From assembly GCA_963693365.1 (NCBI GenBank), contig CAVNZM010000009.1, positions 9,800,243 to 9,864,242 of the forward strand: a stretch of 64,000 nucleotides of DNA, in the 5' to 3' direction. The translations under genes and the position numbers were made by a program. This stretch comes from Amoebidium appalachense (lineage: Eukaryota > Protista > Ichthyosporea). Positions within the stretch are counted from its first letter, which is position 1; each line of letters begins with the position of its first letter. This document shows, piece by piece, positions 1-62,814 of the stretch. Below the pieces are notes generated by a model. It saw only the letters and a list, made by a program, of their open reading frames with translations, ran no database searches and was not told the origin of the DNA.

Positions 1-226
1 GTGAACCGCATGTGATTGGCTCTCGTAGCCAAAAAGCACATACCGATGCGCATGTCTGAGCCAGCCGTGCGCAGCTCCAGTTATAAGGGCATGTCGGGGG
101 CTTCAGAGCTCACTCAGTGTGCTCGGCTTAACTAGGTGTAGGCAGGACTAGCACGTGCACTAAGCAAAATGCGGTCTAGTCAACCCCGGTCTACTTATAA
201 ACATATTGTTTGTCACAGACACACGA

Positions 227-305
227 TCATATTACACAACAAGTCGCTTTGACCGGCCCAGATGTGGCAGACAAGGCATCCTTTTGGATACGCGGAGCAG
301 TGGTG
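227..305 (-). pseudogene. Displaced 3' end of the gag-protease ORF (beyond the Plavaka insertion)
   Basis: Removing 306-19120 and one TG copy keeps the frame: ...DAQT-TTAPRIQKDALSATSGPVKATCCVI-stop (TGA at 229-227). Confidence 0.55.
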
Positions 306-335
306 CATCAGCAAACTTCCCGGAAGTATTGCCAA
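306..335 (+). repeat. Left terminal inverted repeat of the Plavaka element
   Basis: 30 bp, 2 mismatches to the reverse complement of 19091-19120. Confidence 0.92.
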
Positions 336-1810
336 CGTATTTTTTGCTATTGGGGCTATTGGCGATATTGGCAATAGAACCCCTTGCCGCCAATAAGAAC
401 ACCATATTGCAATAATATTGCTTTGGTATTGTCAATGGTAATACAGTACCAATACCCCCTATTGTCGATATCCCGCTGATATGAATATATTATCCAGTAT
501 ATGTTACATCAATATCGCCAATACATTAGAGTGCCATTACATTACCATTGCATTACTATTGGGCTAGCATTATAGACGTATTGCCAATATCAATTATACC
601 CGGGCGATATTACAATAACAACCAAATAATATCAAAAATACAGATAATGATATGGATGTATTATACTGTATTTTCGCATTGTAGTTGCACTATGAACGCA
701 TTATTAATGTATTGCCAATATGTAATTCATAGAAATACAAAGATTTAAATATCAAGAAACATATAAACAATGTATTGCCAACATATGATCCAACTATAAT
801 CAATATATAAATGCGGTATCGCCGATAGGTTGTTTTAATATCGTGAGTATATTGATGACATAAACAGAGGTATGATTAATACACTCCCAACACATTACAA
901 ATAAGGAATATGTGAGTATGTTCCATATCAAGCATATATTGGCAACATACGAATGATACCACCACCATAAAGATATAAGTATTGATAATGCATTGCATAT
1001 ATATTATAAATATCGGTTTTATTTGTGGAATTTATTGACATAAATATTTTTCTGGGTAAACACGTAGGATGGGTGTTCGATATTGACATAACCATGTAGG
1101 CTTCGTTTCGTGTTTTAGCAGTTCGCGATTGGCCGCTCGCACACGGGCACCTATTAGCTAATCAAAACATCAGATTCCACATATCGCTAGACCGATTTTG
1201 ATTGGTTCGATTCAGATTCACATATCACTGGATCGATTTTCAATTGGCTCAGGTCGGTAGGCTTAGGTATATAAGCAAGACAGTTTTCAGCAGATCAGCA
1301 AGCTACAAACACATCTTCTGTGTTGAGCACCTACAGCCCTTACGGCTATACATTTTCTTTTCACCCACCCACCTACACCCACACTCACCCCCATTGATCC
1401 ACACATGCGTGCTGTTTTTTCACGGGGCGAAGACTTCCCCCGTTTTTTGGGCACAAGGACCTCACGGATCAATAAATTGATGACTGGGGGCTTGCCGTGG
1501 TTTACAACCATTGCAGGTTCACTTTCGTCCAAGGGGATGTCCCCCTAGAGGCAACACACGTCCCGGAGTAGTTTTCATAGAACACTATATTATTCAAATA
1601 CATTGCCAATAAATTGATAATGGGAACGAATGCATGCAAAGTACAGTATAAGTGCGCTTATAACATGAAAGGCATATCGGACGAACATTGCCAATGTATT
1701 AATAATAACTTTATTGACACCTCAATCACATGCTCAATATATTGGCAATATGCACACGGTACGGTAAGCACAGCCCCATGATCATTGTCAATGTATTGCC
1801 AATGTATTGC
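326..1810. repeat. Left subterminal array of TATTG(C/G)CAATA-like motifs, interrupted by the 1015-1581 repeat
   Basis: Many copies of tattgccaat/attggcaata and variants in AT-rich sequence, in both orientations. Confidence 0.8.
1015..1581 (+). mobile_element. Dispersed ~570-bp LTR-like repeat, copy 1
   Basis: Aligns along its length with 11700-12268. Several ATTGG (CCAAT) boxes, TATATAA at 1268-1274, AATAAA at ~1471, structured 3' end, terminates ...agtagttttcataga. Confidence 0.8.
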
Positions 1811-2062
1811 ACATGTCGTCATCCATACGTGTTCCGTATGGTCACTTTATTAACTTCGGTTGGATATACCACATTATATTGAGGACCACACCTGGTGGCC
1901 CTCCCCCCTCCCCCCCTCCCCCCCCCGGCCCAACCCCCTCCCCCCCCCCCCTCCCCCCCCCGGCCCTCCCCCCCCCCTCCCCCCCCCCCCCCCCCCCCGG
2001 GCCCCACCCCCTTTTCCCACAGGCTCAACCGGCCATGTATACACCGCCCCCCCCCCCCCCCC

Positions 2063-2944
2063 CTAAAAAAACCCAAGTCCACTACCCCCCCCCCCCCACC
2101 CAAAATCAAAGAAAAAAAAACTTTTAGGGCTCGTCAATGTTGCAGGCGGCATGGGACTTGTCGATGTTGCAGGCATGGCCGTCTCAGTGCTCGTGCTCGG
2201 TATTGGCGGCGAGGGGAGACTTAGGAGCGGGGGGGGCTCTGGAGCGTGGGGGGACTTTTGGGCGTTGATCTCTGAGTCTTGTTGCTCAGCCTCGGCCTCC
2301 TTGAGCCTTGCCTCCTCCTGGGCCTTGAAAGTCTTCCAGTTGTTGATGGCCTGAGGACACACGTATTAGAATGAATGTAACAAGAGTTCTGCAGACAAAG
2401 ACATGTGCCAAGTGGCAAGCTGCAAATGGAGCATAATTTAACTGAAATAATAATATGCAAACGTACTCCCCATCTTCTGGCAAGAAAGCTATAAAATGTG
2501 GAAGTATCATGTTCATGTTCAAGGGGTTGGGAGGAGGGAGGGGGGGGGGGGGGGGTTCCCTACCGCTTCAAAAGACCTCGGGTTCGCCAGCCCGTGCCAG
2601 TCCTTGGGGATGCCTCCCTCCTTGGAGAAGGGTGACCAGACAGGCAAGCCATTTTCAGCTTGTGCCGCAGTGCGGTCGCTCAGACAGGCCTCGATGATGT
2701 AGATGATGAAGCGCACAAATTGGGGCGAGTCCTTCAGCACGTCCTGCATCATTGAGAAATCAGCAGTTAGCTATGATCATGTGGATTGGGCTTGGGTTAA
2801 TCTATGTACATCAAGGACCATTAACTTAGTAAAAGGAAAATGAACTCATAGACAGCAAACGCAATTGAAACAAACGAAAGAACTAGAAAAGAAAGTGATT
2901 CCATACACACATGCCCAAAAGGGCTATTATGGGAAGGGATAAGG

Positions 2945-3018
<74 letters not shown>

Positions 3019-3987
3019 GGACTTACGTCAATGGTCTCGAAGGTGATGTCCATGTCGTTGGCGCGGTTTCGCACTTCATCCAAGGCCAATAGCAGGTCGA
3101 GGAGCGCTGGGTTCCCAAAAGGGTGGCCGGTCTCTGGGTCGCGGAAAGCCCTGCTGCCACCTGACATGCCTGGGGCAAGGTCGATGATATCCATGAGGCT
3201 CTGCCAGAACGCCCACCGGGACGTGAACTCCCCGGGGACATCCCTGTCCAAGATCTGCAAGAAGAGATGTGCATGTCAGTGATGAGTGCTGACGAAGGAA
3301 TGTACAAACAGATTCAGAATAACTTGTCAACGGTAAAAGGTGTTCAATGCCTAACAAACAGCTACTACTAGCATAGTATCATGGGCACATTCATTTTTGT
3401 CCTACACTCTGACTATAAAACTCTACATTGCAGGCAGTGTTTGGGGTTTGAACACACAAGCAACCAGGGTTTAGGAAGCTTACCCTGACGTTTCCTGGAA
3501 GCACACTGAACATGGGCATTTGCCGCCGGACAGACTTGACGACGTTGTGCTTGGCCTGTGACATGGCCCTGCTGAACCTGCCATGTTTGGGTGGAGGGTG
3601 TTAATATCGTTATATAAAAAAGTCAACAAGATAACCAACCATTTTAATGTAAACCTATGGATAGTTGTCCCACACTACTTGCAAGAAGTAAAGTATGTCG
3701 ACGACAATATCACTCACTAGAAACATATGAACAATACAATGCCAATATCATTTACATATCGAAGACATGTTGGCAATACTATTTCGATACAATGCCACAG
3801 CTATTACGAATATATGAAACATATGAGGGACACGTAAACTTAATCAAAAGTACAACAAGTGTTCACTAACATATTGCCAATGTATCAGAATGATACGATG
3901 CCGTATATCAACCCTATGAGCACCTCATTATGATGGATAGAACACTTGGGGATGATGTGGTGTGCTTGTGTGTGTGTGCTTGCGCTT

Positions 3988-4021
<34 letters not shown>

Positions 4022-6817
4022 TTACTTACTTGGACCTGAGCTTGAAGTCTTCATCGGTCCGCTTCAGCTTGCCGAAGTACACAACGGCTTCTTGAATCTC
4101 CTCGTCGGAAACCTTCCCCCAGAAGGGCTTTCCTGTGGGGGGGTCTTTCTTGAGCGTCATAGCGATGGCCTTGATAAGGCGCTGGGGATCATTCTGGATG
4201 TTGGCGCCAAACTTCATGAGCACCGTGGTGTACACAGTGTCGGTCATGGGGTGCTTCCGAAGAAGCCTTGCCTGCATTGGATGGAATAAAGAGAGGGTTG
4301 GAAAGAAGGTCTTTTTTATCTCATGGAACAAAGATTTAATGAAGACATGCACATGACTAATTGATTCGTTAACTGACGTGAACCATAGAATAGGGTTTTT
4401 ATGGGTTTGGATTTGATACACAAGTGCGGTTGAACATTCTTAATTACTTCAAACGTTGTCTTCAAGGTTTGGCCGTGTCATTGGGAGGGGGAGGGGGGGG
4501 GGGGGGACGATGTCTTCAAGGTTTGGCGGTGTCATTGGGAGGGGGGGAAGGGGGGGGGGGGGGGGGGGGGCTGGATGGGGAGGATGGGGGGCCGGGGATG
4601 CGTTACCACAGTGGTGTTCAGCATCAACTCATCATCCGCAGTAGCCTCATTGGAGGACACATCAGACATCTTCATCTTCTTGACCTTGGGCCTCTTGGGG
4701 GGGTCGTCGTCCTGGGAGGGAGCGGCCCGCTTCAGGACACCCGTCGTAGCGAAATTCGCGATGCCTGCCCTTTTCGATGGTGTCTCTGTGCCAAAAGCAA
4801 TGTCCAGAGCATCACGCTCGGTCAACTCCGGCACTTGCGCGCGCAGGAGGGCAGCAAACGCGATGTCGAGTTTGGAGTAGTTCATCGGGGCCGAGACGGG
4901 GGCGGGGGTCAACGGCATGGGTTGCTTGGAGCTGTCCTTGCTGCTGGAGCGGTCCTTGCTGCCGGATTTATCTGTGTAGGAATGGTTGGGCACTCAACAT
5001 CCCGACCGAAGCCACAAGAGTATTACGAGGTCACTACCAACTTATTCTCAATACATGCTAAGTACAACACCAATACTGTAACGATATCACGATGGTATTG
5101 CCATTATGTACGTAGCCTACGACAATTGCATAAAGCATAACAAATGTATATTAGCAATGTATTGCGCATGTTTGTTCGATATTCACCGTCAACGAGGAAC
5201 ACATTGAAAATGAGATGCAGTTGGTTTGTGTACAATGGTAGGTGTTTGGACCGTGTGTGTGTTTCTGTGGTTGTGTGTGTGTGCGCGTGTGTGTGTGTGG
5301 TGGGTGGTGGGGAGGGGGGGGGGGGGGGGGGGGGGGGGCAAAAAAAGACAAGACCTGGCAGCAAGGGCCAAGACAAAGACTGGTAGGCTCTCACTAAAAG
5401 TGTGGGGTTAGGGTCCCAGTATGAGCGGCAGCGGCAGCGCAATTCTAGGGGTGTTGCTGCTAGCCAACCCTCAGAGAGAATGTTGACAGCCTGTGCAAAG
5501 TTTGGGCCCAACTGGAACCCAAAGTGAAGCGCAAACGGCGTGGTCATGACAAGGTCACCAGGGTACTGCACCAGCACCTCAGGGACCAGACCCTCCTTCA
5601 CCCATTCCATGATTGCTTCGGCGGTAGGAATGAACGTCTTGTGTTGTATGGGGTTTTTGCACTCAACACCTAAGTCTTCCTGCAGTTTGGCTACGATCGT
5701 TCGATACACCGAGGGTGGGTAACAAAACCAGAATTTTGGGTAGCCAGCAACATGTAGTGAACAAGACGGCACCCCGTTGTCCTCCGAGTGAATTTCAAAC
5801 GCAGAACCTCCCTTCTTCGCAGGTGATAAGTGCACGTAACTAAACGGCCGATTGATACCAGGCAAGTCCTGAAGATAATGAGGCCGACCAAGGGGTGTTG
5901 CATTGACCAGTTGTGTCAGATCAGGAATGCTATGCAGGCGTCTTTTCGGCGGGGGGAGGTCAACGTGTGCAGCATATACACCCCCACCGTTGAGTGCCTT
6001 TTCGTACAGACTTACGACTTCACGGACGGTGGTTTGAGGACTAAGTGGGGGTGCATGTGCCCTAGCAGCTTCGATGCTAGCCTGTATGTCTATAGTCGTG
6101 CAAGGTGTGCGAATGACCTGCCTCCAATGATTGTTGGTGGGTTGCAATGTAAATACGTGGGCATGCTTGCGTAGAGCAGTGGGTGTGTACTGAGACAAGG
6201 CATCTTCAAAGGGTATTGGGGGGGCGAACTGTCGAAGCACAACACCACCAACGTCTATAGCCTCCGCAGCATGGAGCGTGGCTAGTGCTAGCTTTAGGTC
6301 GAGCATGTGTGCAGTAGAAAAAAACAAAATGCAAAACAGAAGACTGCGGTACGGTAGCTAGGTGGGTGTACTATTTATGAAAGCATGCAGGAGGACGCTA
6401 CTGCCAAAGATAACGCAACGAAAAAAAGGTGATGTGCACAGTGTGGTTGCAAGAACAGAATGGGGAGTTGCACGGGGAACAGTCCGGCTATGTACCTGCA
6501 AGGATAGCATGCATATACAGGCGAGTGGGCGGGTTGTGCAGGCTGAGAGGGCGGGATATGGAGGGCCGAGCCATACCTTTTGTTTTCCCAGTTACGAGGT
6601 CCATAGCAGGGACCTTGTTGGCCTGGTTGATGACCTGGGCCAGGAAAGGGTTCGCTTTGCCATCGTCCGAGGCGGACTCGTCGGAGTCGGCTCGGACCTT
6701 CTTCTTGCTCTTGGACCCCTTGCTGGTGCGCACGGGGGTTTCGGGAGGTGGGGTGACCTCCTTGTCCTGTCGATCCTTCTGCTTCTTGGCTGCTTTGTCT
6801 TTGTTCGACTTTGCCAT
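2063..6817 (-). CDS. KDM4-like JmjC histone demethylase with a long uncharacterised C-terminal region (transposon cargo, multi-exon)
   Basis: Proposed exons (minus): 6817-6496, ~6320-5355 (5' boundary uncertain), 4971-4607, 4271-4030, 3577-3484, 3254-3027, 2743-2564, 2350-~2063; splice phases are compatible from the JmjC exon onward. Motifs: LPGINRPFSY, FEIHSED (HxE), AGYPKFW, CKNPIQHK, QYPGDLVMTTPFALHFGFQLGPNFAQAVN, RCRC. The C/H/CxC zinc site matches the KDM4 subfamily. Basic N-terminus resembles an NLS. Confidence 0.85.
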
Positions 6818-6959
6818 GGTGGTGGTACAGTACAGCGAACGGCAAAACAGGCCAGACAGAGCAATCTAATACAAACAATATATCGCAAATACAAGCAATA
6901 CAACGGCCAACATACTGAGGGTATGCACAGTATATTGAAAACATGTTTTCGGTGCGATG

Positions 6960-7112
6960 GGCGCGCCAAAACCCTGGAATTTAGGTGGATTTGACGTGGA
7001 ACCAATCGTGTGCAATGACATTGTGGGTTTGGCCAACCGGTTCCGGCTCTGGACATAAAATAAGTCATAGGCCAATCACGATCGCCTCAATAAAGGCATG
7101 CAAATTCCAATC
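6960..7112 (-). promoter_or_regulatory. Putative promoter of the JmjC gene: E2F-type site plus CCAAT boxes
   Basis: TTTGGCGC on the minus strand at 6970-6963; CCAAT at ~7002, ~7073, ~7107; about 150 bp upstream of ATG 6817. Confidence 0.35.
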
Positions 7113-8348
7113 CGGCTTACGCCTCTCTCCTCAAAAGCCGCACAATATCACCCCATCCAAAAACATCAAAAACACCTGCAACACCATAGTACGCCTTCAT
7201 ATGGAAAACTACTTTTTTAAAAAAACTAAACCTTTTTAATTTACATTGTCATTCACAATACGAATCACTTACTACAGCATGTACGCGACCACGTTTGACT
7301 TCAAAGGTTTGCATGATTTGCTTCGCTCAATCACGTTGAGCATCCCGGGTGGCACGTGTCGATGCTGCTTGGCGGTCATTGAGGTGGTATTGTTTGTAGT
7401 GAACATCTAGCATGTATTTTACACCCATTTAATGTTTATTTTCGTGTTTGTTTGTTTTTTATTTTGGTACTGGATATGTTGGTTTTGCGTAGTAGTGAAA
7501 CTTCCAAGGTGCTTGTATTTTTTCTGACGCCATATTCGCGTCAATAAACGTTGAGGGCATGCAAATTCCTCGTAGGTTTCATCCCTATGTCATGCAAAGG
7601 TCAGTTGCATAATCAAGCCTCCGGATACGACAACAAACCAACACATATGAAAAATAGACCATTTAATTACCTCTTATAAACAATCTTTGTTACATTCAAA
7701 GCCTAAAACAATATGACGTGTTCAAGGTATACATTGTCATGTGTACGCAGCTCACTTGGCCTTCAGTGGGTGAGCATTTTGCTTCGCTCCCATGAGCAAA
7801 TAGCCAATCATCGCAGTTCCATTGTGCATGTATGCGGCGGCGCGCATCATATGCGGCACGATCAGCCTAATATGTATATTAGTACGGCCAAATATACATG
7901 TACATCCAGTGCATGGCTTGTAGACGTAAAGTGCACGTAATATGTATATTGTTTAGATATAAATATCGTGTATATGTATGAATATATATACAACAATAAT
8001 TAATACAGGTACAGACGTAATAAAGACGGTCAGCGGATGCGTGAACCCTTGCCTGGGCCGGGGGGGGGGGGGGGGGGGGGGGCCACCTCCCCCCCCCCCC
8101 CCCCCCCCCCCCCTTTATCCGCGAAATATTGAGCATATATGCAGGCGATATCCACGCGATATCCGTCATTCCCCTGCATACGGGTATCCTTGTCGTCAAT
8201 AAGCGAATATACTTTCTCAATATGCTTACGATACGGGCGGTAGATTGACCATAGGTGTGCTTATGTGATTCTATCATTGTTCTGTATCACACGTGTAATG
8301 TTTTAAGCATCACATTACTTTCACTCTAGGAAATTTGTATATGGCGTC

Positions 8349-17597
<9,249 letters not shown>

Positions 17598-18049
17598 TGT
17601 ATGTCATTGCCTGTATGGTCCACAGGGAATACATTCCCAAGAGTTGAATTCTTTATTCCGTATGTATGCCGTACTTGCCCGTATTTCACGGTTGGGGGGG
17701 GGGGGGGGGGGGGTTGTCATTACTTTCCTGTATTATCCTTTATGCTACTTCAAGTTTTATACCCTACCGCTTACACAGGATGTAGGCTGGTGAAAGGTTT
17801 AATGGTAGGACGTTCGGTGACGTTTGTACCACGGACCACGGGAACATCTTCCCCAGGAACATTATTCAAAACAAAGAACTTTTATATTTTGAGGTGCTAA
17901 AAACGTGAGGTACTGTTATGGCCGTTGCCCTTCTCAATCTTGGTACGGAAATGCACCCATATTATACTGCAAATGTATTGTATATGACGTGTGTATATCG
18001 TACAGGTACTGGTAGTATATTGATAGTACCTCCTACGTAATGATTTGTT

Positions 18050-19100
18050 CGCATTCGAACATACTGGCAGTATATACTGAGACTATAACCAATATATGGT
18101 GTCCTTAGCTGTGTCCGTATTGGTGACAGTATTATAGATGTATTCGCGACATTGCCAATACCACTTGTGCCTTAGATATTCGCAATAGGATAAAAGTTTT
18201 CTTGCTATATCATGTTTATGTCCTACTAATATGGATGTGATATGGGTAGGATATGATCTACATAATATCAGTATATGTCCACCCTAATACCACGGTATTA
18301 GCAATGTACTGCGCATACAAGGACTACACTCCGAATATGTTTGTTGAACATGTGTTGGCAATACATTCACAATATTGCAACTACATAGGTAAAGTGACCT
18401 GTTCTTTCATCCCCAATATTGTACCAATATATTGGCAATAAAATACACGCCCCATATTTTCGGTTGCTTTTACCTATTGATAATAGGTGCATAATAGTCT
18501 TGATATTGTGACGGATACATTGGCCATACATTTGGACCGAATTGAGATCCTATTATAAGCATATCACAACCCTATAACCAATAGCGACGATATGTTTGTA
18601 TCGGCCATATGGGACATATGTGTTGGGTATATTGCCAATAACCCAAAATGGTCAGGAATAATACATTCATAATATATTGGCAATAGTCTTGCCACGTTGG
18701 ACAATACCATAATTTGACACAAAATTATCCTACATTTTATATATTCATAACTTATTGACAATACTCCGCAAGCAATAGTATAATACCGAATAAATACATT
18801 GACAATATCGAAATTGTATTGTTAATAGGCACACGTACACGCGTTTTGAGATATTGCCAGTACATTACTCATACGGTATATAGTTATTGGTGGTAGACCC
18901 GGCATGGTATGACAATAATATCAAAATATGTTGCCGATATTACGTCAATATTACAGTTCTATTACGCTTCTATAGCGTCTCTACCACAGAAAATCTCTAC
19001 TCGCAATACATTGGCAATGGATAATTGATATTACTTCAGTATTAATCTGGTATTGTTACGATATTGGCAATAGATAATAGCCTCACAATATTGGCAATAC
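18050..19100. repeat. Right subterminal array of TATTG(C/G)CAATA-like motifs
   Basis: Same motif family as the left end (e.g. ~18150, ~18430, ~18630, ~18675, ~19010, ~19062, ~19089). Confidence 0.8.
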
Positions 19101-19120
19101 CGCCGGGAAGTTTGCTGATG
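19091..19120 (-). repeat. Right terminal inverted repeat of the Plavaka element
   Basis: ttggcaataccgccgggaagtttgctgatg, the inverse of 306-335. Confidence 0.92.
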
Positions 19121-20652
19121 TGGTTTGGGCGTCCGGGGTTATGTCCGCGCGCAGAAGAGACACCGCCATGTGGTACAGCTTGGTGCCGACAGCCGAGCCG
19201 GTGGCCAGAATTTGATCGCCGTAGCACAACTTAACGCCGCCGCGGGTGTCAAAGCGGGGTAAAACGCCGTTGGTAGATGCCGTGAACACACTGATGAGAG
19301 TGTCGGGGATGGAGGGCACGTAGAGTACATCCGTCAGCTGATGCACCGCAGTAACGCCGTCGATGGTGCTGGAAAAGAACACGTCGCCCACCCCAAGCAC
19401 TGCACATGCACCCTTGTCGGCTACTTGGACCGTGGAGTAAGGCGCCGCACGCATGTTGACGAACACATCGGGCCGGGGGCACACATGGTCAGTGGCTCCA
19501 GAGTCGAGGAGCACCTTGTTGGTGCCATAGTCGTTGCTAGACATGAGGAAAGCCCGGGGAGCGGCAGCCCCCCCCTTGCACTGTGCCGTAGTGTGGGTAG
19601 TAGAGGCAGGGTGGTTGATGCAGGACCCAGGCGGGAGGGGACCACCCTTAGGTTTGCGGCCGTTGGCACGGTTGCCCCCCTTGCACATGGCGGTAGTGTG
19701 ACTGGTAGACAGTGGGTGGTTGACGCAGGAACCCTTGGGGTAGGTGCTGGCACGGTTGTTGCCAGAGTTGCTGTGTTGCCGTTGGGGCACTGAGACTTGA
19801 TGTGGCCTGGTTTGCCGCAGCCGTGGCAGATGACAGGTTGAGGAGCCCGTGTGGTGAAGGCGGCCGGCCCGGAGCTGGTAGTCACACGTGCACGTGGGTG
19901 GCTGGTCTCATATGCCCGTAGCTGTTGGAGGAGGCCCATCACGGTAGGCTTGGGTGTCATCTTGTAGGCAATGACAGGCATTTCGTAGTAAGGCACCTTG
20001 CCGAGGTCGTTGGTGAGCTTGGTCAGCACTTGAGCATCACCAATTTGTGTGCCGTAATCGGCCAGGCGCCGCACGTAGCCGCGGAGCTTCATGGCGTATT
20101 TCGTCGCGGTGTCCGTAGGTTCAGGCGTAGAATTCATGTACAGCCCGATAAGGTCGTACTGATTGGCCTCAGATTGCTCCAGGTAGTGGGCAGATAGGGC
20201 CGACCATATCTCCGCAGGTGTGGTGGTGCGTGTTAACTCTAGGATACAACGCACGTCAACCGAGAGTGCTTGCCACAGGTAGGAACGGGCAGTGTCGACC
20301 TGTTCACGGGTAGCCGGGTGCCACAGTGCTCCGTACTGGGCGCGATGGTGTAGAGAAGACCAGCACCAGAAAGCTGGACATACATGGTTTCGGCCCATGT
20401 GTGGTAGTCCGTGCCTGAATCATTATCAATGCCAGTGAAGAGAGGGATGTCGACCTTGAACTTGATGGAATCATTACGTGAGGGGCCCATAACCCTGTTG
20501 GACATCGTGTTCATAGAAGCTAGTTCTAGTGCACGTTGTTCCTTCTGTAAGTCAGAAATGATTGCATCTTGTGAGGCCAACCTCTGCTCCAGTAGTTGGA
20601 CTAGTTGCTGCAACTGTAAGTTGTCAGACATAGTGTCGTGTATGATGGGCAA
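19121..20652 (-). pseudogene. Ty1/Copia-derived gag-zinc knuckle-aspartyl protease ORF, two frameshifts, interrupted by the Plavaka element
   Basis: IPLFTG..DYHTWAETM (gag N-terminus), PAEIWSALSAHY, CHGCGKPGHIKSQC (CCHC), LLDSGATDHVC (protease), VLYVPSIPDTLISV, TKLYHM; spread over three reading frames. Confidence 0.88.
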
Positions 20653-20753: not shown

Positions 20754-21233
20754 CGTTGGCCACCTCATGGTGGCCTCGTGTGCACCCTGGTGGTGGGCCA
20801 TGTACAGCATGGCCGAAAAGAGAGCACAATGAAAACAAGTCGTTAAAGACATAAAAGTTAACTGTGCACGTTGAGTGGCTAGTTAACTTGCACTAAAGCA
20901 CACAAATAAACGTGTTTAACACACCAATTGCAGTTAAACGTAAGTCTTACTTCACACAACTAAAAATATTCTGAGAATATCCGGGAAAAAAAAAAAGCAC
21001 ACTACCACTCTAAGAATAGAATCCTGTGGCAAATATAGACATGACATCATCTGAACCGGGAATATTAATTAATGAGCACAATTAGCACGTTGCTAGTGAA
21101 GCTCGTCATTGGTACAGTTTTGGCTCAAACATATAACTACCATATATGAATATGACCGTAAACAAAAGCTCTATGCACTCGAGTGAGTGTTGAAACAATT
21201 ATTCAATTGCTCAGAAGCTTTCTCTAACAGACA

Positions 21234-22157
21234 TTGCTAGCCGGGAGTACCAGTGTACTCCAACAGGTTCGTCCTGGGTCCCCCGCCTTCCACTCGGCCT
21301 CGAGCAGCCCTGTGGACACCGATGCCCCCCTCACCACCGGTCCTATTCCTGGCTTCCATGCCCCTGTCCCGGCCTCCACCACCTCCCCGGCCACCACCCC
21401 CCTCAAGGACCCCCCCAAACCCAACCTTCGTCGGTCTGCACGTCTCACCAAGCCTCCAACGGCACTGGTCAGCATCACAGCACCGACCATCAACATTGAC
21501 CAACTCCCCAAGGGCATTCAAAAGCTTTGCAACGGTCCCAACGGTGATGCCGTCATAGCTGCCCTCACCTCCGAGTACCAAGCCTTTATCGCCAAGGATG
21601 TCTTTACCGTCGTTGATCCCCCCCCTGATGCCAACATCATCAAGTTCAAGTGGATTGTGACTGAGAAAGTCCTCAACTCAGCCGGTGACACCAAGATCAA
21701 GGCTCGTGGTGTTGCAAAGGGCTTCACTCAAGTCTACGGTGTTGACTACGGTGACACCTCTTCCCCCGTGGTGATGTCCTTCTCCGTCAGTGCCCTCCTT
21801 GCCATCGGTGTGGACGGCAACCATGAGATTCATCAACTCGACGTCTCAACAGCCTTCCTCAACAGTCCTCTTCAAGAAGACATCTACATTGAGCCACTAC
21901 CTGGCTTCATCACCCCCGGCAACGAGCACAAGGTCTGGAAACTCAAGAAGGCACTCTACGGCCTCAAGCAAGCATCACTGGCCTGGTATGAGTACTTCGA
22001 CAAGGTCCTCCTTGCTCACGGTCTTGAACGTCTCCGTTCAGATCCATGTGTCTACATCAAGACCTTCCCCAACGGTGACATCATCCTCACTGGCAACTAC
22101 TAGTATGTGGACGACGTCATCATCATCTGCACGGCCAACTCCTCCCACACCAAGGAT
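21234..22157 (+). pseudogene. Ty1/Copia reverse transcriptase fragment
   Basis: NIIKFKWIV, KIKARGVAKGFTQVYGVDYGDTSSPV, IHQLDVSTAFLNSPLQEDIY, KLKKALYGLKQASLAW, DPCVY, then a stop immediately before YVDDVII; truncated at ~22157. Confidence 0.93.
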
Positions 22158-22435: not shown

Positions 22436-23002
22436 AAACCCCCTCTTCAAAAAACAGAGTTTTTTCCCGTATAAATGACCCGGTGGGGTCGAAACTTTGC
22501 AAGAGCGAAGTAAACATATATAGTTTTCAAAGCCCCGCGGCTGTGTATAGTTTGTATATGGGCTTTGCGGCGCAGCGAGGGCGTGCTGGCACACAAAGTT
22601 GGATATCGACAACCCATAGAATGATCAATGCCTGCAATCGACTGATTGATGTAAGTGTGCTGCCTTTATGATATGTTACCTCATAATGAGCTTCTGAACA
22701 GCGTTTCATCTATTGAGTAAAGATGAAGGTCGACCAGTTTCAATGCTTTACACCCCTCGAAGACTGAAAACCATTGGTTGTTACACAAAGGAAAACCATA
22801 TATGGTGTTTAGACGTAGCCTTTTTTGGCTCTTGTAAACAAAGCAACGGCACCGTGGCCCCTTGAAAGAGCTGCACGTAGATCATCTTCCCATACCCGTG
22901 ATTGAATTGCACCGTTATATTGTCACTTCTCCTTGATATATACCAGTAGTTGGTGTCTCTTACAATGCACACAAAGAATGGACGGGGGCATGGAACTTGG
23001 TG

Positions 23003-24243
23003 ATGGCAGTGGTGCGGGGGTTCGAAGCAGGGACACTTGACTCGGATTTCTTTGACAATATTTTTTCCGACGATAGCACACAGAGTGATACGGAAGACAG
23101 TGAGGCTACAGAGAATACCGCTCTCTCAGGGAAATGGCGTATTTTTGACTCCAAGCAAGTAGACATAACACTCAAAGCAGACGATATTGAAAACAGGCTC
23201 CTAGACACGTTCAGGAAGGAAATCACAGAGATACGAAACCGTGTGAAAGCCCACGTTTCAGGAAACGCAACCATTAGCCACGCCCTCAACCTTTTCTTTT
23301 CACCACTCATTCTCCAAACACTTCTTGAACATATGAATGTTGGACTGCGTGCAAGCAAGAAGAGGACTGCTTCAATATACGAGCTGCACGGTTTCTTGAA
23401 AGTGATATGCTATTTGTCATTCTACCGTGTGTCCCCCTCCGTGTTCTATGACAGCACACTGAATCACGCATTCCCAGATGCACGCACGTACCTGCCCCAC
23501 AACCGGTTCAACGAATTGCTGGGCGCGCTGTCAAGCACCCCCCCCACACAACATGATGGTGAGACCGGGCGCACATGGAATTTGCAGTTCCGCCAAACCA
23601 ACATCCGTCTTCTTGAATTCGAGCAACTGGCATCACAGCGCATGGCGGAAATGTGCTTTGTGCCGAACGTTTCCGTGCTCATTGAAGATGATGACCATCT
23701 GCGGCTTAGGTCAAATGTTGTTGAAGAAACGGATTTCGTACGTGTTAACAACCCAATCAAGGCATACGGGCCCGTAAACCACCTTCTCGGATCTTTGTTG
23801 ACTGGGTGCCCTATATCAGCACATGTGGGTCAGCGTGCACAATCAGTGGACGACATTTTCGGTGTGCTGTGGTCTCGGGTGACCCCAAAGTTTCCGAATA
23901 CGACCGGTTTTCGGAACTCTTTCGGAGTTGATAGGGGTTACAACTCGAGGGAGCTTACAAATTCGGCACTTAGCATGGGCCTCCAACTCCATGGGACCCA
24001 CAAACGTGGACCCAACTTTCCGTTCACCTTTGGAGTCCCACCGGAGAAGGTGAAGGGCAACGTTCAACTTGTTAGCACTGTCGGTGCTAAGGCAGCATAC
24101 TGGGCGGAGAGGAAGGCGGAGGGTATGGTGCCCCCCCCCCCCCTCCCCCCCCCCCCCCCCCCTCTCCCTCCCCGGGGGTCCCCATGCCCGCTCTCCCCCT
24201 CCCCCCCTCCCCCTCCCCCCTCGCCCCCGCCTCTCGCCTTCGC

Positions 24244-24320
<77 letters not shown>

Positions 24321-24447
24321 CTGGCACACAACACACAGACACACACAACACATAGACACACACAACACATAGACACAAAAACACAGACACACGAACAAAC
24401 AGGCACACGTACACACACACATACACACATACACACACACACACACG

Positions 24448-24490
<43 letters not shown>

Positions 24491-25198
24491 GCACACATAC
24501 AGAGACATACACACACACGCACGCATGCCTACACACACTGACAGATACACGCAGCGGACAAACACAGACATGCATATTCACACACACCATGCAGCACACA
24601 TACACAGGCACATACACACACACGTACACACACATGCACGAGCACGCACACACTCACACACGCACACACGCACACGCGCACACACACACAAACACTCACA
24701 CACACGCACACACACACACGTGCACGCACTCACGCGCACATGCGCCCACACACACACACACGAGCATGCACACGCGCACGCGCACACGCACACGCACACG
24801 CACACGCACATGCACACACACACACACGAGGCACGCATGCACACACGTGCAGATGCACTAACTCAATCATGTACATGCATCATTTGTAGAGTACTCTGGC
24901 AGGGATTTTCCACAGTTCTTCAATTTGTGCCCTTCAAGCTTTTGAAAGTTTTATTTACATTTCTTTTTGATTACTGACATAAAATGCACAGGTGTACGTG
25001 GGGGACCGGAGGTGAAACTAACTGCGCTTGCGTATCGTGGGGGGTTTGGTTCTGTGGGTCTACTACAAACCTGCGATCCGGCAGCTGGCAAGGGGATGTG
25101 GACATACAGGGTTGCAAACAAGAGGTGTGTCTTACATGCTTTATATTTCACCGTGTTTATTTGTGTGCATGTGTTTTGGATGTGTGTGTGCCTTTCTT

Positions 25199-25233
<35 letters not shown>

Positions 25234-25477
25234 GGGGGGGGGGGAGGGGGGGGGGATTAGGCTTGCTTTTTTTTTTGGGGGGGGGGGGGGAGGGGGGGGG
25301 GGGGGAAGGGGGAGGAGGGGGGGGGGGGATAGGCTTGCGCTGTTCGTGTGGGTGTGTGTATGAATGCATCTGAACGGCACTGTGTCAGTTGTGTTTGTGT
25401 GTGGAGAGTGAGTATTTGTGCTGTGCTTTGTACTATGGCTGCCTCGTGTATGTTGAGGGAGTGAGTGTGTGTGTGTG

Positions 25478-25525
<48 letters not shown>

Positions 25526-28327
25526 GGATGGAAGAGGGGGGGGGGGGTAGGAAGGTATGTTTTTCGAGTGGGGGGGGGGGGGAGGGGGAGGGGGTGCCAA
25601 GGAGGGTTCGGGAGAAGGGGGTTGTGTGCCCATATAGGTGTGCGCGCTGTGTGCGGGCAACGAATTTGTGCTGAATGCGCATACATATTGTCGATGCCCA
25701 TGCAAAGTACACGTAGAAAATGATTATGAACCCAAGATCTAATATTTCATACAGGGAGAAGCTGGACCTCGTGGTCACCTCCTCAATGCCCACCTGGCTG
25801 TGTATGGAGGGCATCTTGTGGCCCAGGGACGGCAACGATCAGCAGCCTCAGACCGACGCGGCACCTACCACCGGTGCTGAGATCCCGTCACAACCCTCCT
25901 CTCCTGCGTCAGTGCCCACCCCCTCCCCCGCTGGGCCAAAGGGGAGATGAGCAGGCAGCACAACGAGTGGTTACTCTTACCACAGGCCAGGCATCCCCCG
26001 AATGGTTTGCCTTCCGTCAGTTTATGATTACGTCCACTGGTGCTGCAGAGGTGCTGCGCCAACTGCGGGCGGAGGATGTCCTCGATGATGCGCATGTCGA
26101 TGTTCTCCGCAACAAGATCGGCTTCACCATACCCAGCGCACGGGATGCAGGGGTCGACGACGTGGAGGTTGCAGCCCGATCCTACAGCGAAGAGGAGCTC
26201 AGCAAATTAAAGGTGCCAGATCTTAAGAGCCTGGCATCCAAATGCGGGCTATCTTCGGCGGGCAAGAAGGCAGATTTGCTTCAGCGGCTCACGGAACATT
26301 TTGCCAGCAGTGTCTCGCAGGACAATGCCGGCCCTCGCCCACCGCCACCCCCCCCACTGCCTTCTGACCAAGTGCCCCGTTGGCAGTTTGCGTCTGCACT
26401 TCCGCGCGCAGACACACGAATGGGTCAGCCACCCCACGTGCAGCCACCTCTCACTGCGGAAGGGCACCAATTTGGTCCACCCACTAATCCTGCTGCACCT
26501 CATATGGGAGTGACTGGTGGCCCTTTTGGTGTACCTCAGGGGTATCACCGGACCTATGTGCCCATGCCCCAACCCGGCTTTGCCCTGCCCACCCAGTATG
26601 CTAATTACCAGCCGTCGGTGCATGCGCGCGACAACCGGCCACAGGTACCACCGGCTGAGCCTGTGCCTACACACCAGCCACCCGAGGCACCCTCACAACC
26701 GGCACAGCACCAAGTCGGCAGCTCTGCGCGCGGTAGTGTGAGCGAATCGCCGGCAGTGGCAGCACAATCACGTGCCCGTGCAGTTGATGTTGCTCTGCTG
26801 CGTGCGTGGTTCCTAGAAGTGCAGCGCACAGACGGCATGGCAAGTGGGTCCCGCAACGAAGCTAATGTGCGCCGTGCGCTTCCATTGTTTTTGGAGGACC
26901 ACAGTCAGTGGAGGGTGGATGGTCCCATATGTGAGGCTGGCCTTGTGTGCGTTCGTGAGAAGCCGTATATGGGTGCGTCTGTGGATGGTACCTTGCGTTT
27001 GTTGGACACGTCTGACAATACAGCACACGGCGCAATTCTGGAGATCAAAACAATGACGTCACCCACAACCACCCGAGAAGCAACTGTGCGTTCAATCACA
27101 CACGGCCGGTCTGTGGAATGTGAATTCGGGGATGACACCTGCCGTATCATGGTCCACAGCGCATCCTATCGGTGCCAACTACTGCATCACGCCGCAGTGT
27201 ATGGAGTCAACCGTGCCGTTTTTGCAGTGGGGGCAACCGACACAATCCTATACGCTGTGGTCGTCAAGTTCCCCCAGCGGGTGTTGGACGACTACTGCTC
27301 TGTGCTTGCCATGATCGCGCAACGACACCTGCGGTGGGTGTATGGGAACAACGAACCCCCCTGCTTCACACCGGCGGAGCTGAAGGGGCTCTCAGCAGTC
27401 GACAACGACACAGTTGTGAGTAGTCTGCACCTGTGGCGAGCCCTGCACAATCTTCGCGTCAAACACGGGGGGGCCCTACCAACTGCTGCCGCCATCTTGC
27501 CAACGGCAGTGGGCTGGTGGAACTCCACCAAAGGTGCTGTGGACATAATATCGCGGTACCTCGCCAATGTCAAGCTGGACATCAAAGGATTGCCCCCCGC
27601 TGGGGCAATTTACCTGCGAACGATTCAGCTCCTTTTGCTTTGTTCATTTCAATGCCACCGTATTATGGCGTTGGGAGACCGCTTGCAAGAGGTGCAATCG
27701 TATGTCCAGGGTCGTGACATGCTGAACCACGAGAGTTCATTTCGAGTGTTTGTTGCACGCGCGCCAGTGGAATGGCAATTGCCCCCGCACGTGTCGCAAT
27801 TAACGGCGCAGCTTCTCGCGGAGTCCTCGCCGAGCGGTGGTCCTGCACCTCCCCTACGCCACTCCCCCCGGTTTCCACGCGTAGCCGCGGCCGCCCCACC
27901 CGAACCACATACACCCCAACGCCGCCAGTCACCGCGGCTTGCCAAACGCAGCCGGTCTGTCTTTCAGCAAAGCGACACTGATCTGGAGCAGCCAAGCAAA
28001 TTTCCGCGCTTGACTAGGCAAATCCGGCAGGGGTATTGGGGTACGGGTGAGGGCAGGCAGTTTCGGCTGAACAAGACCAAACCCCACGTCATCGTGCAAA
28101 ATGAGGACCGAGGCAATTGCGCATTATGCGCTTACTTCAAGAAGGTGGCGCCTGGCAAAAGGTCACGCATAGGTGGCTCGTCACAAGCCAGTTGTGAGGC
28201 ATGCAACGTACGTTTGTGCTCCAGGCGCAAGTCCAGTAATCCAAACGCCAAATCCTGCTTCGATATATGGCACACGAACAAGGATATCAAAACACCTGAA
28301 TACTGGGCAGATTACGAGCCTCCGTAG
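23003..28327 (+). CDS. piggyBac-like transposase with an inserted YqaJ/lambda-exonuclease domain and SAP domain
   Basis: Exons ~23003-24122, 24992-~25123, 25755-28327 (one probable frameshift near 25940; start codon uncertain). Asp motifs [32 protein letters not shown]; [11 protein letters not shown]. Insert: [48 protein letters not shown] (SAP), [38 protein letters not shown]-terminus [19 protein letters not shown]. Confidence 0.85.
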
Positions 28328-31227: not shown

Positions 31228-31546
31228 TAGGTATATAAGCACGACAGTTTTCAGCAGATCAGCAAGCTACAAACACATCTTCTGTGTTTAGCATCCACAG
31301 CCTTACAGCTATATATTCCTTTTTCATCCACCCACCTACACCCACACTCAACCCCCATTGATCCACACATACGTGCTGTTTTTTCATGGGGCGAAGACTT
31401 CCCCCGTTTTTTGGGCACATGGACCTCACGGATCAATAAATTGATGACTGGGGGCTTGCCGTGGTTTACAACCATTGCAGGTTCACTTTCGTCCAAGGGG
31501 ATGTCCCCCTAGAGGCAACACACGTCCCGGAGTAGTTTTTCATAGA
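31228..31546 (+). mobile_element. Dispersed LTR-like repeat, copy 3 (5'-truncated near the TATA box)
   Basis: Near-identical to the 3' ~320 bp of copies 1 and 2, with the same 3' end. Confidence 0.8.
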
Positions 31547-31589
31547 AGACTGGTTTCTCTTTGCCTCGAGTAAACAGCGTAAACCCCAA

Positions 31590-57222: not shown

Positions 57223-58398
57223 TCAAAAGAAAGAAACCAACTCATCATTCCCCATACGATACAACATGCTCAACTTCGAAGACCGAACACGGCCCCCCGC
57301 CATGACATCATCAAACACCGCAGTTACCAAATCAGGCAATAGCTCCATAGCGGGAAAATTCGCTAGCCACTGTTTGATTGGTCCGTTTTCAGGAATGTGC
57401 ACCAGGAAAATAGGAACCCCCCCTCTCCGAGCCGCCTGTATCATTTTCAGATTTGGGCACACGCTGCTCACCAATAAGCTCAGGTCAACACCATCCGTTT
57501 TTTTGTGCGAATTTTCCAATTCCTGAACGACATTCGGATTCGGGGACCTTCTATGCGCCTTGCATTGCACGTTGACTATAAGCGTTTTCCCGCATGGAAG
57601 CGTCCAGTCTCCCTTTAAGTCCACCCCACCATCCCCGGCGCCACCACAATGCTCAAGTTTAAACCCGAGGGGGTTTAACACATCCAAACAATGAAATTCG
57701 TAATCCCTCCCAATCTCCACTTTTGTGCGTGTTGTTTCGGGAACCGGCAATTTTTTGGGCGGCTTGTCACCTGTCGGTTGTTTTTGACGAGAAGACCTGT
57801 AATTCACATGAGCGGGCGTTATTACAAATGTCAAAGAAAAAAGTTGGGGTGAAAGGGGTAACTGAAGCATAGCAAGTGCCTTCCTAAAACATGTGGCAGT
57901 AACACAGAAACATAGGGGGGTATAGTAGAGGAGGGGGAAGGCAGCGCGAGAGAGGAAGGAAGAGAGAGAGGGGAAAGGAGAGAGAGAGGGGGGGAGGGGG
58001 GGGGGGGGGGGGGAGAGGGGGCAGACAGAAAACGAGAGAGAGGAAGAAGTCGTCCGATAGTGAGGCAGTGGGGAGCGTAGGGGGCGAGGGTAGAGGCGGG
58101 GACGGAGAGGGAGAGAGATGGGTAGGAGAAGAGGAGAGGGAGAGGGAGAGAGAAAAGGGGGGGGATGGGAGGGAAGGGGAGAGGGGGCGGCATTGTGATT
58201 GTGAAAGAGAGAGGGAGAGGGAGAAAGAGAGAGAGAGGGGGTGAGTGATGGAGGGGGAGAGAGGGAGCGAGAGGGAGGGGGGGGAGAGAGAGTGGGGGAG
58301 AGTGAGGGAGAGGATAGAGAGAGTGTGTGACGGAGAGCGAGTGTGAACATGTTGGGCATAGGGGAGAGGAGACGTGGGAGAAGAGGGTGACTGAGCAT
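57223..58398 (-). CDS. RRG7: RRG7/DUF2034-like restriction-endonuclease-fold (Mrr-like PD-(D/E)XK) protein, probably mitochondrial; 5' exon structure uncertain
   Basis: Main exon ~57796-57223: GRDYEFHCLDVL..LEHCGGAGDGGVDLKGDWTLP..VNVQCKA..PNVVQELE..LLVS. Candidate start MLSHPLLPRLLSP resembles a presequence; the intervening CT-rich tract is probably intron. Confidence 0.72.
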   Translation of the reverse strand: MLSHPLLPRLLSPMPNMFTLALRHTLSLSSPSLSPTLSPPPPSRSLSPPPSLTPSLSLSPSPSLFHNHNAAPSPLPSHPPPFLSPSPSPLLLPISLPLRPRLYPRPLRSPLPHYRTTSSSLSFSVCPLSPPPPPLPPSLSPFPSLSSFLSRAAFPLLYYTPLCFCVTATCFRKALAMLQLPLSPQLFSLTFVITPAHVNYRSSRQKQPTGDKPPKKLPVPETTRTKVEIGRDYEFHCLDVLNPLGFKLEHCGGAGDGGVDLKGDWTLPCGKTLIVNVQCKAHRRSPNPNVVQELENSHKKTDGVDLSLLVSSVCPNLKMIQAARRGGVPIFLVHIPENGPIKQWLANFPAMELLPDLVTAVFDDVMAGGRVRSSKLSMLYRMGNDELVSFF

Positions 58399-59388
58399 GG
58401 GTTTCTGCGCAATTTTGTACTTGCGCGGACATGCGCGTAGTGAACGTGAAAAAAGGAGGCAGAAGAAGTAAAGTGGACAACATGTCTTGTCAAACCCGCG
58501 ACGTTAAAACTATGCGTGAACACACAGCGCTGACAAGTCGATGATGAAACAAAGCGGATGCGGAAGAACTTACGTCAATTTTCCGTTGCCTGGTGCAGTA
58601 GCCAAGAGTCTCAACGGTGCGCCGTGTGCACAGAAGCACCTCCACAGCGGACGTGAAAGCATGTTGCGCAGTAAAGACATGGTGGGGTGTTCCAGAAGTT
58701 TCAGAATTATTTTGTGCTAAGTCGTCGAAAGACTGCCAAACCATGCCGCTTAGAACCCGCATACAGATTTCAACTCTGACTGTCTCTATGTATTATCCTA
58801 CTTCAAGCTCAAAAAAGAGAGCGTGTGACAGCTCCCTAGCGAAAATGTAACTGTTACAACCCAGCTGTACATGTGAGAGTGATGCTTCGACTTCGTAAGG
58901 CTTGTTCGCCTGTGTGGTACCTGTGTGACCGTTGAGGTGCAGTTGTCACCCTCGATGTTCGTGATCTGGGGAGAATCTACCGCGAGATAGCCATATATGG
59001 TAAGTGGCTCACCTCTGCACCAATCGGAGCGCTGCTGCTTCCGCATGGCGCGCACGCGCACGTTCGAACTAATATGGAGGCTTAGAAGTTCACTCAAAAA
59101 GAGAATAAACCTCAGTAGCTCAAGGTGTTGCCGTATTGGTTGAGATAGTGGCCAGGCACATAGGCCTCCATACGTCCCACAGCCACCGTGCTAGAGTGAA
59201 ATAGCATATAGCACCACACCATGCCATCGCAGGGCATCCTCATATGAATATCTCCAGTTTCCCTAGATACATCTCGACCCAGCTATCCTCTAAAACGTTA
59301 GATCCCCCCGGGTCTTCCCTTGGGGAGAAAAAATTACCCTCTCCATCACCAAGTTCACCCTTCCGCCGGGCAGGTGTTTTGTGCCGCC

Positions 59389-62814
<3,426 letters not shown>

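Follow-up and report, generated by a model that had tools for sequence, protein, structure and literature searches.

The window analyzed here is a 64-kb stretch of the Amoebidium appalachense genome (64,000 nucleotides of assembly GCA_963693365.1, contig CAVNZM010000009.1, positions 9,800,243 to 9,864,242, forward strand), and its positions 306 to 19120 are occupied by a giant Plavaka-type DNA transposon. The element carries a transposase gene and a divergently oriented second gene, here called gene B. Nested between the first two exons of gene B lies an exon encoding a predicted KDM4-type JmjC domain, and a reading frame of the phospholipase D (PLD) family runs antisense within a transposase intron. 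In a preliminary description of the locus, made from the sequence alone, three genes (transposase, JmjC and PLD) had been recognized, and the two cargo enzymes had been proposed as an anti-silencing pair. All three families were confirmed by Pfam, but the element has four coding units and not three free-standing genes: three independent genes can be ruled out, as JmjC is an exon within gene B and the PLD frame is nested in a transposase intron. The JmjC exon within the element's second gene is the most interesting feature of the locus, and the claim for the nuclease is weaker than first stated. The features of the element are as follows, with TIR for terminal inverted repeat and TSD for target site duplication.

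304 to 305, no strand: left TSD copy, TG, 2 bp, pairing with the TG at the right flank
306 to 19120, no strand: whole transposon, 18.8 kb, TIR to TIR
306 to 335, plus: left TIR, starting with CATCA, 28/30 against the right TIR
328 to 1803, no strand: left subterminal region, dense in the 9-mer ATTGCCAAT on either strand, by 9-mer counts
1011 to 1581, plus: 570-bp repeat, copy 1, 93% identity to 11696-12268, with CCAAT- and TATA-like boxes
2350-2063, 2743-2564 and 3254-3027, minus: gene B exons 7, 6 and 5, GT-AG, in phase
3577-3484, 4271-4030 and 4971-4607, minus: gene B exons 4, 3 and 2, GT-AG, in phase
5355 to 6306, minus: KDM4-type JmjN/JmjC exon (predicted), 317 amino acids, own ATG, phase-1 donor, between gene B exons 1 and 2
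6577 to 6817, minus: gene B exon 1, Lys/Arg-rich, 80 amino acids, phase-1 donor
8349 to 17597, plus: Plavaka transposase (PF18759), nine modelled exons, frame breaks in exons 5 and 9
8349-8954, 9204-9368, 11112-11479, 13112-13360 and 14034-14546, plus: transposase exons 1-5
9693 to 10961, no strand: 190-bp tandem array, 6.7 copies, 95% matches, within transposase intron 2
11696 to 12268, plus: 570-bp repeat, copy 2, inside transposase intron 3
13094-12540, minus: single-HKD PLD frame (putative Nuc type), 184 amino acids, antisense in transposase intron 3 (11480-13111)
14786-14940, 15299-15521, 16081-16324 and 16965-17597, plus: transposase exons 6-9
18151 to 19099, no strand: right subterminal repeat region, by 9-mer counts
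19091 to 19120, minus: right TIR, ending with TGATG, 28/30 against the left TIR
19121 to 19122, no strand: right TSD copy, TG, abutting a Copia-type protease region

The earlier delimitation of one 18.8-kb unit by TIRs and a 2-bp duplication was borne out. The 30-bp TIRs pair at 28 of 30 bases with TG outside each end, and they form the sole inverted match in the window at up to six mismatches. According to section 3.2.2 of Kojima 2025 (PMC12730594), PlavakaB elements have the termini CATCA..TGATG and a TSD of 2 or 3 bp; the 2-bp TSD found here, at a single insertion site, lies within this range. Since these ends, the short TSD and a Plavaka transposase occur together, the element fits PlavakaB, and 306 to 19120 is a genuine transposon that can be assigned to PlavakaB by its ends, TSD and transposase motifs. 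A scan of viral contigs for the TIR returned one locus (L002) with merely 19 shared bases, regarded as chance, and an Rfam search over positions 1-20000 gave zero matches.

The transposase had been named correctly as well, with PF18759 above the cut-off on two exons (E 1.9e-20 and 2.1e-08). Its motifs are CHLC in exon 5 and HVGVH, followed by E, in exon 7; the choice of the catalytic D and E is our own reading of the sequence. The model is open up to the end of exon 4 and breaks in exon 5 (at a G-run near 14180) and exon 9 (near 17250). Three public DNA runs (X1, X2 and X4, with three organism labels from two studies) were compared with the window over 3,582 bases, and because the window departs from all three at four places (mismatches at 5801, 7392 and 12859 and a one-base indel at 7847), the frame breaks may be assembly slips. 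In a further run, X16, possibly an RNA run, a contig of a distant Plavaka family agrees with 13287-13336 and then runs on, lacking the GT donor present in the DNA runs, which supports the junction of exons 4 and 5. Exon matches at 13287-13345 to further Plavaka families occur in X1, X2, X4 and X16, the one in X16 being apparently spliced. Among the viral contigs searched with a transposase exon, zero related loci were found.

Gene B had been overlooked in the preliminary description. It starts at an ATG at 6817, divergent from the transposase, and without the JmjC exon its seven exons with GT-AG ends form an open frame of 545 amino acids, in which exons 2-7 (2063 to 4971) encode a core of about 465 residues. 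The GC content at third codon positions (GC3) was 0.75-0.79 in the four gene B exons measured, and 0.77-0.79 in the three of these that belong to the core. Searched one at a time, the exons matched no family in Pfam, NCBIfam, PHROGs or PDB at curated cut-offs, and exon 2 had no match in the Atlas. In the exons scanned, neither the PHD and Tudor reader domains of canonical KDM4 proteins (Pfam) nor the VANC domains DUF1985 and DUF287 were matched. By analogy with the second gene of CACTA elements, the product of gene B may be a TnpA-like accessory protein.

The JmjC exon can be joined to this gene in more than one way. Its phase-1 donor fits gene B exon 2, giving an open 782-residue form from its own ATG, and a TAG acceptor at 6287 would yield an 856-residue cassette form together with exon 1; the skip, JmjC-start and cassette forms (545, 782 and 856 amino acids) are each open throughout. 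A C-run lies 16 bases beyond the donor, resembling 10 of the 14 other modelled introns (6-15 bases). If left unspliced, the frame extends through low-complexity intron sequence to 400 amino acids.

The JmjC domain itself was identified by PF02373 above the curated cut-off (E 2.5e-13), so that the domain reported earlier stands, but it forms a single exon inside gene B and not a divergent, intron-containing gene of its own. Retained are the iron triad H173/E175/H261, the 2-oxoglutarate (2OG)-binding residues K191 and Y111, the residues Y157, F170, W193 and N275, and the zinc set C216/H222/C291/C293. In an alignment of 115 sequences, every one of these residues agrees with a column that is at least 90% conserved. 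A structural C-H-C-C zinc site is a feature of KDM4 enzymes, which demethylate H3K9me3 and H3K36me3. The closest solved structures by sequence (55 sequences at E of 0.001 or below) were yeast Rph1 (E 4e-12) and KDM4A/C/D, ranking above KDM5 and JMJ14. An alignment-based AF2 (AlphaFold2) model reached a predicted local distance difference test score (pLDDT) of 82 and a predicted template modelling score of 0.85, and Foldseek placed KDM4A at the top (E 4.7e-18) with the whole length aligned; this result leans to KDM4A because the folding alignment consisted of KDM4-like matches, and folding from the single sequence gave a pLDDT of 33. Sequence and model together support an intact domain with a predicted KDM4-type fold.

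Relatives of the exon are remote. Among 1.84 billion representatives, P0002 was the only match spanning nearly its full length (8-313), with 30% identity over 318 columns, and it was sister to the JmjC exon (support 0.97) in an unrooted tree of 115 of the 151 available sequences that held no named references. P0002 consists of a Lys/Arg-rich leader, intron-like residues and JmjC, and its residue patterns, judged from the protein sequence alone, are compatible with phase-1 donors at both corresponding places. BLASTP of its leader against gene B exon 1 gave no significant similarity. The arrangement is at most suggestive of a layout common to P0002 and gene B with its JmjC exon. A metagenome scan with the JmjC and P0002 alignment led to one locus (L001) among 203 pattern matches, an intron-rich JmjC gene with no recognizable transposase or PLD on inspection of its list of open reading frames, and a word-based homologue search with JmjC, at near and longer lengths, returned nothing. 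Diverged KDM4-like proteins of whitefly and thrips genomes (P0001, P0006, P0008, P0010, P0018 and P0019) were also among the top matches.

In the reading that we prefer, and to which we give about an even chance, a PlavakaB element has a JmjC exon spliced onto the predicted DNA-binding core of gene B and thereby provides its own histone demethylase, with the PLD frame as an older passenger. The exon would have been gained by a TnpA-like gene B, whose core would bind the subterminal repeats in the manner of TnpA of CACTA elements. The candidate binding motif is the 9-mer ATTGCCAAT, present in 14 copies within 2,399 subterminal bases of the two ends together against 0.09 expected, with a maximum of 2 copies across 1,000 Markov simulations. 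As this 9-mer was chosen from the subterminal regions themselves, its counts elsewhere (one copy in the element interior and none outside the element) are the fairer control. Transcripts that include JmjC (782 or 856 amino acids) would tether a KDM4-type enzyme to element copies, where it could strip repressive histone H3 methyl marks, H3K9me3 by precedent of the family, while skip transcripts (545 amino acids) would retain the function of the core. Copies could then do without a JmjC exon of their own, a few intact ones supplying its function in trans. The PLD frame would once have been a selected nuclease-type gene of the family, and its present activity is doubtful. We regard the JmjC isoform as the likely element-targeted anti-silencing form, so that of the anti-silencing pair proposed earlier the JmjC half is kept as a hypothesis, given the apparently intact KDM4 fold and the in-frame splice to gene B, while the nuclease side has become weaker.

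Several observations weigh against this reading. GTCTTG is a weak donor, and the GC3 of the JmjC exon, 0.52, stands against 0.75-0.79 in gene B, so the JmjC frame may be an unspliced insertion. The Asn that assists 2OG binding in 100 of 115 sequences is Ser183 here, a Ser being found in 13 of 115. No DNA-binding family was detected in gene B by searches with single exons, which a domain spanning exons would escape, and the transposase contains the two frame breaks mentioned above. A contig end at 5532, present in both X2 and X4, continues into sequence matching 5040-5069 (29/30 letters), which amounts to a deletion of about 460 bases (5070-5531) covering codons 259-317, with the loss of His261, the zinc-site cysteines and the donor. 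Depth at 5532 drops from 130 to 56 in X2 and from 590 to 161 in X4, and depth is not copy number, a use of it that we rejected; the deleted form nevertheless looks common among copies. An end starting with CATCA lies within JmjC at 6257 in X4, where a further Plavaka family has probably inserted into a JmjC copy, and a second foreign end occurs at both 6148 (JmjC) and 12899 (PLD). Of the three JmjC variants among copies, two are non-synonymous, which is too few for a test. Finally, the PLD frame of a sister family is frameshifted by a 1-base gap at 13008 in X1, X2 and X4.

The public runs also provide the evidence on linkage. X1, X2 and X4 contain the element sequence at about 99% identity, and in each of them single contigs join PLD to transposase exon 4; the sister family, about 89% identical, likewise has PLD beside the same transposase exon. 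In X1, JmjC, exon 1 and the divergent promoter lie together on one unbranched contig of 2,740 nucleotides. The exon 2 acceptor is outside the deletion seen in X2 and X4, whose copies thus keep the skip form, and this suggests that copies without the JmjC exon could be served in trans. Contigs of X16 over JmjC or PLD were absent, which weighs neither way, and in X1 no cover of the JmjC region by the sister family was obtained at 85% likeness, which proves nothing. The element family is thus polymorphic and partly decaying, with related copies losing JmjC and PLD. The preliminary description had taken family members without the cargo as counting against its proposal; this is partly the case, as His261 is gone from the deleted form in X2 and X4.

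For the PLD frame, divergence from the sister family could be used as a test of selection. From 71 differences in total, 40 were listed and 36 were used, the omitted ones being two outside the frame, one common to all contigs and one beside the gap. Of the 29 listed changes in PLD, 18 fall on third codon positions (p 0.0014), and 11 synonymous and 13 non-synonymous codons correspond to a ratio of about 0.33 with transition bias and the unlisted differences uncorrected; the stop codon stays a stop. The transposase exon has seven listed differences, too few for testing. This codon comparison indicates that the PLD frame evolved under purifying selection between the two element subfamilies.

The frame was identified by PLDc_2 above the curated cut-off (E 2.4e-10) and has one HKD motif, in agreement with the nuclease-type assignment made earlier. 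Its motifs are HxKxxxxD at 118, GTYN at 137 and NYEN at 149, and by them it is a putative Nuc-type nuclease. Its best matches are weak, namely Nuc (E 0.011) along with PLD6/Zucchini chains; NucT (E 0.006) is far below the cut-off. On plasmids, 11 weak PLD-family records with 26-37% identity were found, and in the Atlas the frame falls among single-domain PLDc_2 clusters from eukaryotes, phages and bacteria. Zero related loci were found among viral contigs, prokaryote contigs and phage records, and a word-based homologue search returned nothing. In Zucchini proteins, strand 1 and helix 1 are separated by a zinc wing, and the N terminus carries a mitochondrial membrane anchor. Residues 17-57 of the frame align ungapped to Nuc 13-53, which leaves no room for the wing; PLD6 chains match from residue 111 onward only, and no membrane anchor lies within the frame as read, which has no in-frame start. 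A Zucchini orthologue was rejected for the missing wing, and the earlier term Zucchini-like was an overstatement.

The 5' end of the frame is its weak point. A stop lies immediately upstream, the first Met is residue 64, beyond the first strand and helix, and the end of the frame is near the intron 3 acceptor. The sister family has 504-565 letters at the PLD 5' end in place of 60-115, and these roughly 445 extra bases suggest that the present family may have lost the PLD start. Near the right end, at 17775-17890 on the minus strand, a TATA-like box, a 29-codon ATG frame and a GTAAGC donor (17774) may mark the first exon of an antisense transcript. The lone phase-compatible acceptor for this donor in the first 10 codons of PLD is a weak AAG, and no convincing upstream exon was found. 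The nuclease half of the original proposal therefore keeps the purifying selection and the linkage to the transposase, but it lacks an evident start, is not Zucchini and has no tie to small-RNA pathways.

If such an exon were used, both enzymes could be active in counter-defence, JmjC erasing silencing marks and PLD cutting silencing RNAs or DNA. This would accord with the retained H118-x-K-x4-D, G(S/T)xN and NxEN motifs, the purifying selection, the contigs joining PLD to exon 4 in three runs and both subfamilies, and the ATG exon with its GTAAGC donor and TATA-like box. We nevertheless hold it to be unlikely, considering that PLD has no in-frame start, that the one acceptor open to the candidate exon is weak, that the start was perhaps lost and the sister frame is broken, and that neither Zucchini features nor a link between PLD and RNA silencing were found. 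Passive capture, by which host or viral gene fragments would sit in introns, untranslated from the element and decaying in the manner of Pack-CACTA elements, appears equally improbable to us. Both frames are indeed intron-nested and single-exon with a GC3 unlike that of gene B, and deletions, insertions and a frameshift affect them in other copies. However, even the closest of the 1.84 billion representatives has no more than about 30% identity to JmjC over its length, and yet JmjC retains all metal ligands, a combination that needs long selection; it is a complete catalytic core ending at an in-phase donor, and PLD was under purifying selection across two subfamilies. Less probable still is a role of the cargo in transposition, PLD processing the DNA ends left by the transposase and JmjC opening target or donor chromatin or acting on a non-histone substrate: the best PLD matches are the DNA/RNA nucleases Nuc and NucT, the frame lies inside the transposase gene and the highly diverged JmjC has a changed substrate-pocket residue, but no direct evidence exists and the Plavaka families described in the available part of PMC12730594 need no such gene.

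The 570-bp repeat is likely an independent small insertion, possibly a solo long terminal repeat or another small mobile repeat. Its orientation is opposite to that of gene B and the PLD frame, and a partial third copy, cut at the TATA box, lies outside the element at 31228-31551. The idea that PLD belongs to this repeat was ruled out, as in both subfamilies PLD adjoins the transposase exon, and the repeat is also present at places that lack PLD. The right flank of the element is a Copia-type protease region (Pol_BBD, E 5e-18). A frameshifted Copia-type gag/protease (19083-20652, minus) and a Copia reverse transcriptase fragment (21228-22103, plus) form nested elements there, and reading both flanks jointly revealed no recognizable Copia motif across the insertion site. 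Farther along, 22937-28327 holds a PiggyBac-like transposase fragment (PF13843) followed by an 865-residue frame with SAP, YqaJ-like and zf-Tnp_2 domains, possibly a second multi-domain DNA transposon, and 31590-52974 is a big inverted duplication, each arm measuring about 9-10 kb (87-93% gapped identity, centre at about 41.5 kb). An RRG7/Mrr-like nuclease-fold protein (57223-58503) and a class I tRNA synthetase exon (61464-61940) are likely host genes.

The literature searched, with Repbase Reports and the Kojima and Bostrychia supplements outside its scope, yielded neither Plavaka or CACTA elements with KDM4 or PLD as cargo nor any eukaryotic DNA transposon with a nuclease of the PLD family. 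Work of the group of Iyer et al. has reportedly described JmjC genes in the neighbourhood of TET/JBP transposon clusters. Term counts in the available text of a review on giant transposons (PMC6431247) likewise gave no KDM4 or PLD cargo of Plavaka or CACTA elements. With the PlavakaB elements of Kojima 2025 (PMC12730594), the present one has in common the CATCA..TGATG ends, the 2-bp TSD and the C(2)C and H(3-4)H transposase motifs. Some of the families described there carry a 2OG dioxygenase (TET/JBP) as a proposed silencing countermeasure, in fungi according to the same text; the cargo there is TET/JBP, whereas here it is a histone-demethylase-type JmjC and PLD, and the term JmjC occurs zero times in the main text of that paper. 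The giant Plavaka elements of the red alga Bostrychia (bioRxiv 10.1101/2025.02.11.637652) are similar in size (17-19 kb), chromatin- or DNA-modifying accessory genes and tandem arrays, and one of their accessory proteins fuses a putative DNA-binding domain with a 2OG oxygenase. They differ in that PAG2 is a methylase/SET protein and PAG3 is ParB-like with a distant 2OG oxygenase, and KDM4 or PLD is not mentioned in the portion of the preprint at hand.

Catalytic-only KDM4 paralogues in a genomic parasite are also known from the endogenized giant viruses of Amoebidium (bioRxiv 10.1101/2024.01.08.574619), where they were proposed to counter H3K9me silencing. As far as the accessible preprint text goes, these genes lie in viral insertions and not in Plavaka repeats, which carry tyrosine recombinases in that work, and they are not spliced to a transposon accessory gene. 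The Nuc, NucT and Zucchini (PLD6) proteins resemble the PLD frame in having one HKD, G(S/T)xN, NxEN and a length of about 180 amino acids; the frame differs from them by its antisense position in a transposase intron and the missing evident start, and the anchor and zinc wing of Zucchini are unseen.

For gene B, the closest parallels are TnpA and VANC. TnpA of the CACTA element En/Spm binds subterminal repeats, and TnpA-like proteins diverge fast and have little sequence in common (PMC2613891, in the part available). A second, alternatively spliced and poorly conserved gene together with subterminal repeats is common to both systems, but gene B shows no detectable sequence similarity to TnpA, is transcribed divergently and contains the JmjC exon. 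VANC, the anti-silencing protein of the Mutator-like VANDAL elements of Arabidopsis, was shown to bind and hypomethylate DNA (PMC5735166), and according to the text at hand, introns and non-coding parts of the element contain short motifs as well as tandem repeats, as found here. Unlike VANC, our candidate has an enzyme domain and no match to DUF1985 or DUF287, and its motif binding is a prediction. The fullest version of the parallel, an enzymatic, histone-level counterpart of VANC in which a sequence-targeted KDM4 made by JmjC-exon splicing, an exon-skip switch and an expressed antisense Nuc-type nuclease would be combined, has in our view a small chance of being correct. Among transposon proteins, VANC is a demonstrated anti-silencer, and the same role has been proposed for TET/JBP, SET and 2OG cargo. 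As an optional exon of an accessory gene, a KDM4 domain would add to these a compact case, open to testing, in which a transposon erases its own histone marks, with the copies with and without the JmjC exon in the same runs serving as natural controls.

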